From: a virus
Lineage: Duplodnaviria > Caudoviricetes
DNA: 64,000 bases
Direction: 5' to 3' (one strand)
IMG/VR virus record: IMGVR_UViG_3300035522_000179
Coordinates: 185,614 to 249,613 of that record
Positions 17,756-38,404 of the stretch are shown here, piece by piece. The notes under the pieces were generated by a model that had not been told where the DNA came from, ran no database searches, and saw nothing but the letters and a program-made list of their open reading frames with translations. Numbering within the stretch: the first letter of the stretch is position 1; each line of letters begins with the position of its first letter. Made by a program: the position numbers and the translations under genes.

Positions 17756-17872
17756 TCCTATGAATCCGAATAGATATAGATGCATATTTGCTCTAATATG
17801 ATAAAAAACTATATCGAGTACACAATAATAAAATCTTGTGTATAAAATACATGAGCAGAAAGGAGATTTGAT

Positions 17873-32062: not shown

Positions 32063-32311
32063 TTATTCACAGCAACCAGTATACCTAGATAATACAAGCT
32101 TGTAAAGATCACCAATCTGATCGTCAAATACTTTCGAGAACATACTTCTAGGAACAATCCTTTCTATTTCGCCAAGTTCAAAGGAAGTCCTATACAATCT
32201 GTCTCCACAAGTTTTCTCCCAATAGTGATTTACAATACATTGCGTATCTCGAAATATATTATCTGATTCGAAATCATGTAAAAAGATTAAAGCATCTCCA
32301 TTGTAGTTCAT
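32063..32311 (-). CDS. hypothetical protein
   Basis: 82 aa, gaaagga RBS, first gene behind the early promoter. Confidence 0.65.
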   Translation of the reverse strand: MNYNGDALIFLHDFESDNIFRDTQCIVNHYWEKTCGDRLYRTSFELGEIERIVPRSMFSKVFDDQIGDLYKLVLSRYTGCCE

Positions 32312-32364: not shown

Positions 32365-32455
32365 TTCTATTTTACTTAATTAGATTTTCCTAAAAAATAT
32401 GACTTCGTATTTCTTAGGGGACAAAACCTTAATCAATTTAGAAAGGGTTTACGTT

Positions 32456-35044
32456 ATGAAAATATGTGAACTTGAATTAACAAATTTTGCTGGTATCTAT
32501 GCTACCATGCACAGAACTTTTGTAAGACTGAATTTAAGAAAGTCAAAAAATAAGATTTGTTTGATTACTGGTCCGAATGGACACGGTAAGACAGTGTTAC
32601 TGTCACAGTTAAACCCTTTCGCCACACTCGGAACTGTGGATGAAAGGGATTCTCTTCAACTTATATTGGAAGGGAAAGAGGGACATAAAAAAATTATCAT
32701 TCAAGATGAAGAAAACGAATATGAAATCGACCATTTCTATTCACCAAATAAATCCACACATTCTGTGAAGTCTTACATTAAGAAAAATGGAGACGAATTA
32801 AATCCAAATGGAAATGTCACTTCCTTTAAGGAAATTATCAAGAATGAACTGGATATGGAACAAGAGTATATGAAACTTGTTCGTTTAGGAAATAATGTAA
32901 CCAATCTCATTGAGCTTAAGAGTTCTGAGAGAAAGACCTTTATGTCAAAGATCTTAGAAGATGCGGATATCTATCTTAAGTATTATAAGAAGATTAATAT
33001 GGAAGTAGGAACCTTAAAGACATTAATCTCTCATACAACGGATAAAATCAATAAGCTTAATGTAGATGATGTGGATGGAGTAAAAGAGAAACTAAAGAAA
33101 GAAGAAAAAGAATTAAAAGAACTGGACGAATCCATTTTGAAATTAAACGATACGATATCGGTAATTGAATTTCAGATTGGGTCGATTCCCCCAGTAGACA
33201 TGGAGAAACTTCTGGATTCTGAAGTGAAACTAAAGAAGATGGAAAAGAAGCTAAAAGAGAAATCTTCAATATCTGTAGAATCTCTTAAGAATGACGAAGT
33301 GGAATTGTCTTTACGAATTGCTACAAACACAGAGAGATTACGGAGTTTAAAATCTTCTTTGGATAACTCTCTGGATACCATGGATTCCACAAGGTCTTCG
33401 ATTAATATCTTGAGTCAACAGCTGAGTCGAATTGAAGATTCTACCGATATTATTGGTTTAACGAATATCATCGTTTCCTTAGAAAAGACTATTAAGGAAG
33501 AAGAGGAACGTTTCAAACCTTATGGAGAAATTGGATATACTAGAAAAGATATTGAAAACTTCTTAGCATTCATTAAAGAAAAGCAAGAGGTTTTAAATAC
33601 AACTTATGAGTTTGGTTCGGAAGTTGTAAAGAAAGTCTGTGATCTTTTGATGAAAGATAAGAACGTGATTTCTTATATTGAAGATCATTTGAGGAAAGCA
33701 ACTGAGGATGAAGAGATTGACAATGGAAAGTCGATTATTAAAAGAGTCTTTTCCAGATATCCGAAGTTTTCGATTCCTTCCAAATGTACAAGTTGTGAAG
33801 CAATGGAAATCATCAACGACTTTCAGATGATTGCGAACATTGAAAAAGATAGTGAGTTAAAGTCAAAAGAGTTCTATACTTATATGAATATGGCTTATAA
33901 CAACATCAAAGGAGTTTTACTGTCTTTTTCGGAAAACAAAGAGTTGTTTTTAAAACTTCCTGAGTATATCAGGAAGGAATATAAAACAGATGTCCTTCTT
34001 AAAAAGATTGGGAAAACCGAAATGGTTTATGATCAAAAGTTAATCTTTGATGAGTTATCGTTTATCACAGATTACGAGTTGTATTTATCTCATCAAGAAG
34101 AATTAGAAAATAAAGAAACTGAATTAAAAACAATGGCTCATGAATCTTCTTTGAAATCTTTGAAAAAACAGATTAAAGAGCTGTCCCTGAAGTTAGAGCA
34201 AACAACGAGCAATTATTCCAAAGAGACAGAACTTTTCGCTGAAATTTCACGCAGTTTAGAGAAAGATAAAGATGAATTAAGTGAATTACATACATTGATA
34301 GAGGCTCTGGAAAATAAAAACGAATTGGAATCTTTTGTAAAAGAAAGCAATGATTCTTTGAAAAAGAAAGATCAGTATAAAGAAGAGAAGTTTACCAAAA
34401 CAAAACTTCGAGATTCCATGTCACTTGAAAAAAATAAAATCACAAGAGATATTTCCTTAATTCAATACACTTTAAAACAACTGGAAGAATTTAAAAAAGA
34501 ATTAAAGGTTTATCAGAAATACTATGATGAATGGATTTTGATGAAGGAATCTCTTTCCGCGAATAAGGGAATTCCTTTGATCTTCATTGACCTTTATTTA
34601 AAGAAATCTTTGAATGTGGTGAATGCATTACTGGATAGAATATATAATGGAAGAGTATATGTAGAGAAGTTTGATATTGCGGCAGATTCGTTTACAATTC
34701 CTTTTGTAAAAGAGGGAACGAATGTACCGGATATTCGGTATGCTTCTCAGGGAGAGAAATCCTTCTTTTCCATTAGTTTATCTTTTGCAATCTCTTTTCA
34801 AAGTATGAGTAAATATAACATCATGTTATTGGATGAGTTAGACTCGGTGTTGGATGAGTCCAATCGATCGAACTTTATTCAGATTATTGAAGAATTGATT
34901 GATATGATAAATGCGGATCAAATCTTTATTATCTCTCATAACAACATGTTTTCCATGTATCCAGTGGATGTGGTTTCTGTTGTAAATGAATTACCGAAAG
35001 ATAATAATCTTGCAAACTATATTGAAATCGAGTATGAGCAATAA
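32456..35044 (+). CDS. sbcC: SbcC/Rad50-like SMC ATPase (T4 gp46-like)
   Basis: Walker A GPNGHGKT, long coiled coils, central CTSC zinc hook, signature ASQGE, Walker B LLDELD and H-loop ISH. Start revised from the RBS and the GACA-N6-TA at 32420-32431. Confidence 0.9.
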   Translation: MKICELELTNFAGIYATMHRTFVRLNLRKSKNKICLITGPNGHGKTVLLSQLNPFATLGTVDERDSLQLILEGKEGHKKIIIQDEENEYEIDHFYSPNKSTHSVKSYIKKNGDELNPNGNVTSFKEIIKNELDMEQEYMKLVRLGNNVTNLIELKSSERKTFMSKILEDADIYLKYYKKINMEVGTLKTLISHTTDKINKLNVDDVDGVKEKLKKEEKELKELDESILKLNDTISVIEFQIGSIPPVDMEKLLDSEVKLKKMEKKLKEKSSISVESLKNDEVELSLRIATNTERLRSLKSSLDNSLDTMDSTRSSINILSQQLSRIEDSTDIIGLTNIIVSLEKTIKEEEERFKPYGEIGYTRKDIENFLAFIKEKQEVLNTTYEFGSEVVKKVCDLLMKDKNVISYIEDHLRKATEDEEIDNGKSIIKRVFSRYPKFSIPSKCTSCEAMEIINDFQMIANIEKDSELKSKEFYTYMNMAYNNIKGVLLSFSENKELFLKLPEYIRKEYKTDVLLKKIGKTEMVYDQKLIFDELSFITDYELYLSHQEELENKETELKTMAHESSLKSLKKQIKELSLKLEQTTSNYSKETELFAEISRSLEKDKDELSELHTLIEALENKNELESFVKESNDSLKKKDQYKEEKFTKTKLRDSMSLEKNKITRDISLIQYTLKQLEEFKKELKVYQKYYDEWILMKESLSANKGIPLIFIDLYLKKSLNVVNALLDRIYNGRVYVEKFDIAADSFTIPFVKEGTNVPDIRYASQGEKSFFSISLSFAISFQSMSKYNIMLLDELDSVLDESNRSNFIQIIEELIDMINADQIFIISHNNMFSMYPVDVVSVVNELPKDNNLANYIEIEYEQ

Positions 35045-35213
35045 AAAGGCTCCTAGAGAACTGAACGTTCTAAGGTTCTCTAGGAGTCTAGTAATGCGTC
35101 AGGCTTCACGAAAGGAGCGGTATTTTCAATAAATCATAAATTGCAAATTGCGAGTCTGTACATTTATTAAGAAGTTTACCATAGGCAAAAGACTTTTTCT
35201 ACCCAACGCATTA
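35043..35213 (-). ncRNA. candidate late small RNA (rod-shaped, central bubble)
   Basis: AACA-N6-TA at 35212-35223; 13-bp terminal stem with 3 G.U pairs on the minus strand; terminator 35048-35088 with a U-run; no ORF in the track. Confidence 0.6.
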
Positions 35214-35272
35214 ACATTTTGTTTTTGAAAAATCCCCTGTATGAGAAATCAATCTCATACAGGGGATTTTAA

Positions 35273-36220
35273 TTACTTATTGGTTGATGCGAACATCGCA
35301 CGAAGTGTTGCACTTCCAGCGTATCCATCAGCAGCCAAACCTCTGGTATCATTCTGATATTTCGAAACATATGCTTTTGTGATGTCGCTATAATTGGTAG
35401 ACACCTTCGTGGAATTGATAATTCCTTTCATGTCATATCTCATGACAGCATACAGATAAACATGAACGATATAAGTAATATCTGCAAAAGCAGTAGTGTT
35501 TTTCTTCATTGCAGAATAAGCAGGGCAAGCTGCAATTGTTTTGGTACCATACTTTCCATCAATCGAAAGCTTCGTGTTGGTCTTATACTCTTTTACAAAC
35601 AACGTCTGAAGAACCTTTACAGTTGCTTTCAAAGTGTTATCTCCGTAACTTCCATCTACTTTAATCTCTTCTTTTCCAAGTTTCGTATTCACCCAAGTCT
35701 GATAATTGGTTACGATAACATCGGACGAAGTGGTATCCGTAGCTTTTTCTGTTTCGGTATACTCTACAAAAGAGGGAATCCCATAATAATACCATCTACT
35801 GATCTTGAGATCCTCTTTGTAAACATTGAGTTTAGAGTCTCTCATCTCAACGGTACATCCATTTCCAAGGTATGCACCCATATGGGTCAGGTTTTTATTG
35901 AAAACCATACAAACCTTGTTTTTCGGAATGGCACCAATCAGACCCTTCTCTGTGCAATCGTTATAAAAGCCAGAGGCAGATCTGTCTACACCAGAAAGAG
36001 GATAGAAGGCACCACTACAGTCTGCACCAATCTTTCCTTTTCCTTCTGCGAGTTTCGCATTGTAATAATCTTTGTTGTAAGTTGCTGATCCAAATTGCTT
36101 GTACAATTTATCCGTAAGGGTTTTTGTGATGGTCTCACCGTTTGCTCCCCACAGATAGATTGCTCCATTGTTGTAAAGATCTTCGAAATACTTTACGAAC
36201 TTTTCACTACTTACACTCAT
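35273..36220 (-). CDS. endolysin: NlpC/P60-like (CHAP-type) peptidase plus peptidoglycan-binding repeats
   Basis: YLWGANG...ADCSG...THMGAYLGNG; C-terminal VDGSYGDNT, IDGKYGTKT and ADGYAGSAT PG-binding motifs. Confidence 0.85.
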   Translation of the reverse strand: MSVSSEKFVKYFEDLYNNGAIYLWGANGETITKTLTDKLYKQFGSATYNKDYYNAKLAEGKGKIGADCSGAFYPLSGVDRSASGFYNDCTEKGLIGAIPKNKVCMVFNKNLTHMGAYLGNGCTVEMRDSKLNVYKEDLKISRWYYYGIPSFVEYTETEKATDTTSSDVIVTNYQTWVNTKLGKEEIKVDGSYGDNTLKATVKVLQTLFVKEYKTNTKLSIDGKYGTKTIAACPAYSAMKKNTTAFADITYIVHVYLYAVMRYDMKGIINSTKVSTNYSDITKAYVSKYQNDTRGLAADGYAGSATLRAMFASTNK

Positions 36221-38246: not shown

Positions 38247-38404
38247 TAACTATGGATCCATCGAGAATTTAATCTCGATGGATCCATGTTGTTGAGGAAG
38301 GTTACATAGAATACTCTAAGCAAATTTAATTGCTAAATAATTGTTATTCAAAAATATAAAATAAGAACTAGAGTAGAAATGAATCTACTCTAGTTCTTTT
38401 ATGA

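Follow-up and report, generated by a model that had tools for sequence, protein, structure and literature searches.

What is encoded between the endolysin gene and the converging sbcC-like gene of an AR9-like jumbo phage? The question is posed by a window of 64,000 nucleotides (nt), the final 64 kb of the 249.6-kb phage record IMGVR_UViG_3300035522_000179 in IMG/VR (positions 185,614 to 249,613 of the record). On the minus strand of this window, at 35043 to 35223, an initial annotation had placed a rod-shaped small RNA made late in infection and had proposed that it either represses translation or mimics an open promoter and titrates an RNA polymerase. Our analysis indicates that the element is very probably a real, independently transcribed noncoding RNA (ncRNA) gene, whose product appears to belong to no described family. 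That this RNA also masks GGAG-type ribosome-binding sites late in infection is a further step, and the statement as a whole, gene plus mechanism, is offered tentatively, as quite possible but short of probable.

A probable ncRNA gene conserved in position and architecture

Read along the minus strand, the locus comprises the endolysin stop codon, a terminator hairpin (T1), the promoter AACAAAATGTTA, the RNA body, and a second hairpin with a U-run that adjoins the sbcC stop codon. Relatives of this locus were found by synteny, with SbcC as the probe (SbcC identity, 52 to 56%). L003 and L005 come from viral contigs, L004 being identical to L003 in the region and counted once with it, and L059 comes from a 136-kb contig of a metagenome-assembled genome. 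All three distinct relatives keep the layout of endolysin gene, terminator, AACA-N6-T(A/T), RNA body, terminator, and converging sbcC gene, and in all four phages the RNA gene comes after the endolysin gene on the same strand. The RNA bodies are scarcely alignable, with core lengths of 121, 168, 232, and 178 nt in the four homologues. MAFFT and RNAalifold gave no consensus structure for the four cores because the interiors do not align, and helices were therefore taken from individual folds.

These folds share one feature. In all four homologues, the stretch immediately before the terminator pairs with the opening bases of the predicted transcript, in a closing helix of 12, 13, 10, and 23 pairs that begins at, or no more than 3 nt from, the predicted start in every locus. 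At least two pair types occur at each of the ten closing-helix positions that the homologues share; the helix sequences are unrelated between the window, L003/L005, and L059, and L003 and L005 differ by one compensatory change from A-U to G-C. All five non-Watson-Crick positions are G·U on the promoter strand, which corresponds to A·C on the other. As a control, a stem of at least 12 pairs plus a terminator was found at 26 of 7,500 random intergenic starts. The initial annotation had named a lack of conservation in relatives as the outcome that would count against its stem; the closing helix is present in four of four homologues with different sequences. The same architecture, a putative stand-alone ncRNA driven by a late promoter and with its 5′ and 3′ ends paired, likewise recurs in all four.

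The homologous loci have no open reading frame (ORF) in common on either strand, and no sense-strand ORF in them has a Shine-Dalgarno (SD) sequence. Rfam gave no match in the window at the gathering score and, in three loci at E values of up to 10, scattered chance matches only, none of them relevant; ARAGORN reported nothing. The conserved layout, the helix rebuilt from different sequences, the absence of a shared ORF, and the absence of a relevant Rfam match are the reasons why we regard the element as a likely ncRNA gene outside the described families.

Further searches added no homologues. Known phages had no DNA match to positions 34900 to 35400, the endolysin used as a probe in viral contigs revealed no relatives, and an exact 23-nt pattern had no match in the same contigs. 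A degenerate promoter-plus-arm pattern returned five loci, three already known and two that are chance matches (L012 and L015). When five related fragments and two full relatives were searched with the RNA by BLAST, no further copy was detected. A metagenome scan with the SbcC C terminus yielded two loci, L009 and L010, with other protein genes where the RNA would be. Because these more distant sbcC relatives have protein genes in its place, the RNA gene appears to be restricted to a narrow clade.

The RNA gene has a promoter of the AR9 late type

The accessible part of the transcription study of phage AR9 gives the late promoter as AACA-(6N)-TA/G, with the final base as the start site (PMC5312081). 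A promoter had been claimed between the endolysin terminator and the end of sbcC, and it is there: AACAAAATGTTA occupies 35223 to 35212 on the minus strand and has the form AACA-N6-TA. Since the AR9 consensus puts the start at the last base, the predicted 5′ end is the A at 35212, the position that the initial annotation had also expected. Taken by itself the 12-mer is common, with at least one match at no more than one mismatch in 78 of 100 shuffles. As a class, AACA-N6-TA has 144 sites in the genome, of which 56 (39%) are intergenic, compared with 9% intergenic DNA according to a crude gene call and with 10 to 19% for five control words. The enrichment is repeated in two relatives, where 62 of 183 and 79 of 223 sites are intergenic.

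The intergenic sites have the extended consensus aaaAACAat.t.TTAa. The majority lie 12 to 50 nt ahead of an SD sequence and a start codon, and a called gene start is found within 90 nt for 39 of the 56. Among these sites, the promoter at 35212 ranks 18th by a leave-one-out weight matrix. Judged by these sequence statistics, AACA-N6-TA is a genuine promoter class in the window phage, and the promoter of the RNA gene is predicted to be of the type read by the phage non-virion RNA polymerase.

Predicted ends and folding of the RNA

The predicted transcript starts at 35212 and is about 165 nt long. In single folds, RNA nt 1 to 12 (AAUGCGUUGGGU, 35201 to 35212, minus strand) form the 5′ arm of the closing helix and nt 109 to 120 (GCCUGACGCAUU, 35093 to 35104, minus strand) the 3′ arm. 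A 13-bp stem with three G·U pairs, starting at the TA of the promoter and able to form on the minus strand only, had been described before. The stem exists, with 12 bp inside the predicted transcript and 13 when the U at −1 is included, and its three G·U pairs are A·C on the opposite strand. For comparison, a 12-of-12 match for the first 12 nt was present within 320 nt at 18 of 5,000 random genome positions.

The RNA was also said to have its own terminator. This terminator, T2 (35045 to 35089, minus strand), is seen in the fold as a 12-bp stem (CUCCUAGAGAAC/GUUCUCUAGGAG) with a 13-nt loop and a U-run. It adjoins the sbcC stop codon, an arrangement found again in L003, L005, and L059, and probably serves both converging units. 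T2 is absent from our consensus terminator scan because that scan accepts loops of 3 to 8 nt only. The inner helices proposed for the RNA fared less well: the 9-bp helix is present in the centroid fold and absent from the minimum-free-energy fold, and conservation of either this helix or the GGUA/UACC helix was not demonstrable across the four homologues.

Conserved internal elements include a piece of the 16S 3′ tail

Shared k-mers, read by eye, mark a block of the form CUUUU(U)G/A ... YGG in all four homologues (CUUUUGCCUAUGG in the window, 35179 to 35191, minus strand), and a similar block is visible by eye in two paralogue-like RNAs described below. A box with the consensus AAAAU(A/U)CC is kept near the 3′ arm in all four homologues and reads GAAAAUACC in the window (35119 to 35127, minus strand). 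At 35110 to 35117 on the same strand lies CUCCUUUC, an anti-SD-like element whose 8 nt are part of the 3′ tail motif of 16S rRNA.

Stretches of 7 to 9 nt of this tail, CACCUCC and/or CUCCUUUC, occur in all four RNAs: CUCCUUUC in the window, CACCUCCU and CUCCUUUCU in L003, CACCUCC in L005, and CACCUCCU in L059. The core common to all of these motifs is CUCC, the complement of GGAG. In dinucleotide shuffles of the four cores, the observed tail length was matched in 25, 10, 147, and 52 of 5,000. In five of five cases, the tail motif is predicted to be more accessible than the average of its core, with mean unpaired probabilities of 0.46 to 0.83 versus 0.36 to 0.43; the values for the window are 0.76 for CUCCUUUC and 0.40 for the core. 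The bubble that was said to expose CUCCUUUC is thereby borne out in part, in that the element is mostly unpaired in the window RNA, but its position is kept in only one of the three relatives. The claim that CUCCUUUC is the exact complement of a ribosome-binding word used by several genes was confirmed. The window has 8 copies of this word, GAAAGGAG, where 3.2 would be expected, among them those at 17858, 37776, and 56108 just ahead of the gene starts 17873, 37793, and 56097.

Two further candidates were discarded. A second AAAAUACC site in the genome of the window phage (about 15140, minus strand) proved to be fortuitous, lying next to an ordinary ribosome-binding site. The idea that the box is a degenerate early promoter was dropped on comparison by eye with the early consensus, because in the relatives neither the spacing nor the bases agree with it.

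Early and late genes differ in GGAG cores

The AR9-type early promoter word, TATATTAT-N6-G, also occurs in the window phage, for example at 32255 (+), 32363 (−), 56138 (−), and 17748 (+). We classed first genes by the early or late promoter word ahead of them and sought GGAG at −20 to −1. In the window phage, 10 of 14 early genes but 11 of 43 late genes had GGAG (P = 0.0035). The corresponding counts were 14 of 17 versus 13 of 54 in the related genome G006 (P = 2.7e-5) and 16 of 25 versus 8 of 51 in the related genome G007 (P = 4.4e-5), and pooling of these three phages gave 40 of 56 versus 32 of 148 (P = 7.5e-11). On the contig of L059 (G008:C129), GGAG was present in 5 of 8 early and 4 of 23 late genes (P = 0.027), and in AR9 in 14 of 21 and 38 of 79, a difference that was not significant (P = 0.15). 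Late genes favor GAAAG..GGTG forms.

Other candidate late RNAs with closing stems

A descriptor composed of a late-promoter word, a stem of at least 9 pairs starting within the first 8 nt, and a terminator within 75 nt recovered the window RNA and that of L003. It also returned new intergenic candidates in the relatives, at G006:C1:56171-56400 (+) and G007:C1:44344-44590 (+), 142148 (+), and 257235 (−), which have paired ends, AAAAUAC, and terminators of their own. In four phages, the descriptor accepted 12 of 268 late-promoter-like sites, compared with 172 of 7,500 random intergenic starts. Because stems of at least 9 pairs are thus only about twofold above the random rate, the long-stem candidates alone are convincing at the level of sequence, namely G006:56171+ (12 bp) and G007:44344+ (14 bp). 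Each lies between two minus-strand genes, and the G007 RNA and a unit running from about 44694 on the minus strand converge on one common terminator. In AR9, none of 104 late-promoter-like sites had a closing stem plus a terminator.

Of nine candidate late closing-stem RNAs, seven contain AAAAUAC, where 0.39 would be expected; the motif itself had served to pick one of the nine, and four were found independently of it. Downstream of late-promoter-like words, the box is biased to the sense strand, with 7, 5, and 7 sense occurrences versus 3, 0, and 3 of the complement. The AAAAU(A/U)CC box therefore looks like a signature of a family, and it points to a common partner or processing step.

Several other places in the genome of the window phage (G000) resemble short late units. 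In the window, at 38334 to 38240 on the minus strand, a late word, AACAATTATTTA, lies between the capsid stop codon (38405) and the capsid terminator hairpin; the candidate RNA would be about 90 nt long, folding into a small hairpin at its 5′ end and leaving CCUUCCUC single-stranded. Outside the window, at G000:C1:41667-41800 (+) (L083), AAUGAAAAUACC, CUCCC, and a separate terminator come after an orphan late promoter, giving a predicted RNA of about 110 to 125 nt; its score against the RsaE/RoxS model is far below threshold (22.3 bits versus 79; E = 0.68). Likewise outside it, at G000:C1:58912-59165 (+) (L082), a late word precedes about 240 nt of G+C-rich sequence whose ends pair over 9 bp, together with GAAAAUACC and a terminator; this element is antisense to called ORFs and had no Rfam or transfer RNA/transfer-messenger RNA match. 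A feature of another kind in the genome outside the window is a 42-nt palindrome (CCTGTATAAAACAATAATACT..AGTATTATTGTTTTATACAGG), which occurs in at least four places within about 11 kb at G000:C1:33692-44270 and is read on both strands.

What the RNA may do

Our favored reading is as follows. Late in infection, an abundant RNA protected at its ends would pair through its CUCC-containing anti-SD element with ribosome-binding sites of the GGAG type. GGAG cores are characteristic of early and presumably also of host genes, and pairing would lower the translation of both, while late genes, mostly without such cores, would escape masking. The AAAAU(A/U)CC box, which recurs in other late closing-stem RNAs, would act as a protein-binding or processing module. 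Repression of early or host messages by a late RNA fits the early/late GGAG contrast; we consider it possible though more doubtful than secure. Translation repression of early genes had been proposed at the outset, and part of that proposal has gained ground: the anti-SD element is accessible in all four homologues, the GGAG contrast recurs in four phages, and under strict early and late classes the window's own anti-SD segment favors early over late ribosome-binding sites (P = 0.002), as does element 1 of L003 (P = 0.013). No RegB homologue was found in any of the three genomes. The bolder version, a temporal translation switch written in SD sequences of these gut jumbo phages, in which late genes have evolved away from the GGAG cores of early and presumably host genes and a family of abundant late RNAs copying the 16S 3′ tail masks GGAG so that ribosomes pass to late messages, strikes us as rather unlikely to hold in full.

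A number of observations weigh against masking. The same strict test gave P = 0.88 for element 2 of L003 and P = 0.07 for L005, and with looser classes the window phage retained P = 0.02 while the relatives were nonsignificant (P = 0.67, 0.33, and 0.69). No outstanding target emerged: the best duplex reached −24.3, within the range of shuffled seeds, whose best duplexes averaged −21.0 and went as far as −26.5, and the genome of the window phage has no complement longer than 13 nt elsewhere. Pairing with the start regions of the neighboring genes was unremarkable, with ranks of 235/236, 150/291, 236/280, and 111/139 for sbcC and 22/236, 162/291, 67/280, and 16/139 for the endolysin gene, and targeting of the neighbors was rejected as an explanation. 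The probability that all 8 nt of the window's CUCCUUUC are free together is 0.042. The anti-SD element sits at two alternative places (CUCCUUUC in two and CACCUCC in three of the four RNAs), AAAAUAC is steadier across the paralogue-like RNAs than any anti-SD element, and the homologue set numbers four, with L003 and L005 closely related. A single RNA would also need to act on many messages, and the GGAG contrast could stem from early competition with host mRNAs or from an unknown nuclease.

A role through protein must be set beside GGAG masking. Here, the structured late RNA would use its closing helix and AAAAU(A/U)CC box as a ribonucleoprotein, decoy, or scaffold; in one version it would mimic the 16S 3′ end and titrate a factor or a host defense nuclease, and the pyrimidine motif would be a protein site or incidental. 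We find this reading somewhat doubtful as it stands, although a protein-centered role of the box is nearly as likely as translation repression. It draws on the frequency of AAAAUAC in the candidate RNAs, on the sense bias of the box downstream of late words, and on the mixed pairing tests and missing target just described. It is weakened by the shortness of the box, by the selection of one of the nine RNAs via the box, and by the lack of a candidate partner protein, a TROVE/Ro gene being absent from three of three genomes; moreover, unless the mimic version holds, the 7 to 9 nt of 16S tail in all four RNAs are left unexplained. The RNA might also have no function in trans. The promoter, helix, and terminator would then serve in cis as a buffer between the late endolysin unit and the converging early sbcC unit, by transcriptional interference or by insulation, or the RNA could be a 3′ extension of the endolysin message or a stable by-product of it. 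The gene is fixed between endolysin and sbcC in four of four phages despite the movement of other genes (the capsid gene is 3 kb away in the window and more than 100 kb away in the record of L005), T2 is common to sbcC and the RNA, and sbcC has an early-type promoter, all of which suits a buffer. A buffer would need neither compensatory upkeep of the closing helix nor conserved internal blocks, and the more distant sbcC relatives L009 and L010 manage without the RNA; we consider it quite unlikely.

The other proposal of the initial annotation, a 6S-like open-promoter mimic that sequesters the host or phage RNA polymerase, now appears highly improbable. One possible drawing of the window RNA has a terminal loop on an inner stem, which a large asymmetric internal loop separates from the closing stem, and late expression from a strong promoter would be expected of it. 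However, the covariance-model search for 6S and Y-like RNAs gave no match in the window at the gathering score or in three loci at E values of up to 10, and the interior is not a conserved rod, being branched into several hairpins in L003 and set in cores that range from 121 to 232 nt. Nor does the window RNA contain UGUU, which we take to be the template-strand element recognized by the AR9 late polymerase, and without it the RNA cannot copy that element of the late promoter. Promoter recognition by the AR9 polymerase occurs on the template strand, as stated in the accessible part of PMC9209446. Exceedingly improbable, finally, is an element that acts as DNA, either as a pair of inverted repeats belonging to a small mobile element or as a binding site for a protein. 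The arms do form inverted repeats of 10 to 23 bp around a variable core, but the G·U pairs fall on the promoter strand at all five non-Watson-Crick positions and the helix is anchored at, or within 3 nt of, the predicted start in all four loci. Furthermore, paralogue-like copies in the same genome have different arms, which is not how the ends of a transposon family behave, and BLAST detected no repeats of the element elsewhere in three genomes.

Flanking genes and genome type

Upstream on the minus strand, the endolysin gene (35273 to 36220) is an ORF that matches Pfam PG_binding_1 (E = 4e-9) and phrog_2649, endolysin (E = 1.4e-7). T1, located 3′ of it at 35229 to 35270, is a hairpin with an 18-bp stem and is probably bidirectional, because T-runs flank the stem on both sides; the terminator scan lists it on the plus strand, and its sequence is also readable on the minus strand. 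The convergent SbcC-like ORF runs on the plus strand from 32399 to 35044 (phrog_77, E = 3e-59), and its actual start is likely 32456, as alignments of the relatives begin at residue 15; the early-promoter-like TATATTAT at 32255 (+) lies ahead of it. Opposite the anti-SD element and the box, the sbcC strand (35103 to 35127, +) folds into a small 5-bp hairpin, with GGTATTTTCA after it. This structure is listed as terminator-like by the consensus scan and may contribute to stopping sbcC read-through.

The capsid protein is 20 to 25% identical to its counterparts in Staphylococcus, Bacillus (AR9/PBS1), and Listeria jumbo phages, the values for AR9 and the Staphylococcus phages being 23 to 25%. The window phage and the two relatives G006 and G007 each have two genes for RNA polymerase beta-like proteins; RNA_pol_Rpb2_6 has two matches in each genome, both over the cutoff in G000 and G006 and one in G007. 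Because of the capsid similarity and the two beta-like genes per genome, the window phage is classed from its sequence as an AR9-like jumbo phage with two polymerases of its own. The 136-kb piece of a closely related jumbo phage that carries L059 was binned under "uncultured Lachnospiraceae bacterium," which hints weakly at the host group unless it is a binning artifact.

Comparison with known systems

The closest points of reference are the late units of AR9, with which the RNA gene shares the promoter word, the predicted start base, and the two-polymerase type of phage, along with the early motif. AR9 differs in lacking any closing stem plus terminator among the 104 late-promoter-like sites noted above. 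The accessible part of the AR9 study describes late antisense transcripts and makes no mention of small or noncoding RNA (PMC5312081), and in the open-access literature on jumbo-phage ncRNAs or phage anti-SD small RNAs, we found no RNA of this kind described for AR9-like phages. Regulatory RNAs of phages are in general little known, and the few that have been mapped in jumbo phages have unknown functions. In 201phi2-1, according to the accessible part of PMC11512511, 11 small RNAs were mapped, three of them intergenic and all of unknown function. Like the window phage, 201phi2-1 and phiKZ are jumbo phages with their own polymerases and make short RNAs that run from a start site to a terminator, but they belong to another phage group with other promoters and hosts and are likened here by description only; moreover, as far as the same accessible text goes, the conserved RNA of that group derives from a 5′ untranslated region, not from a stand-alone gene with paired ends (PMC11512511).

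Among bacterial RNAs, 6S RNA (RF00013) resembles the window RNA in its paired ends, in the large internal loop of the window copy, and in the predicted late stage; it differs in that there is no model match, no conserved rod, and no identifiable polymerase-mimic element. Y RNA and YrlA gave no counterpart either, with no Y RNA match in the searched loci and no TROVE domain in the three genomes. The RsaE/RoxS family (RF01820) comprises C-rich small RNAs of Firmicutes that work by blocking ribosome-binding sites. Its members are short, end in their own terminator, and, within a sequence that is AU-rich elsewhere, expose a pyrimidine-rich motif with complementarity to ribosome-binding sites, as the window RNA does. 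However, the window RNA does not match their covariance model, their motif is UCCC whereas RNAs of the window type carry the 16S tail itself (CUCCUUUC or CACCUCC), and the window RNA, unlike them, has paired ends, is phage encoded, and has a promoter for a phage polymerase.

With respect to function, the nearest analogy is to T4 RegB, which, in the accessible part of PMC3014915, cuts GGAG in early ribosome-binding sites and thereby inactivates many early messages, while late ones escape. The analogy is functional only. In the phages studied here, GGAG marks early genes and is scarce in late ones. RegB is a protein nuclease, whereas the agent proposed here is an RNA that would pair with GGAG without cutting. 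If repression fails as an explanation, the family would still be a new structured RNA, with the AAAAU(A/U)CC box pointing to an unknown partner. If the temporal switch is real, it would be an RNA-only counterpart of RegB, produced by a phage polymerase. Masking of GGAG-type sites, if it holds, would represent a new viral means of timing translation and would provide a compact RNA tool for class-specific translational shutoff in Gram-positive bacteria.

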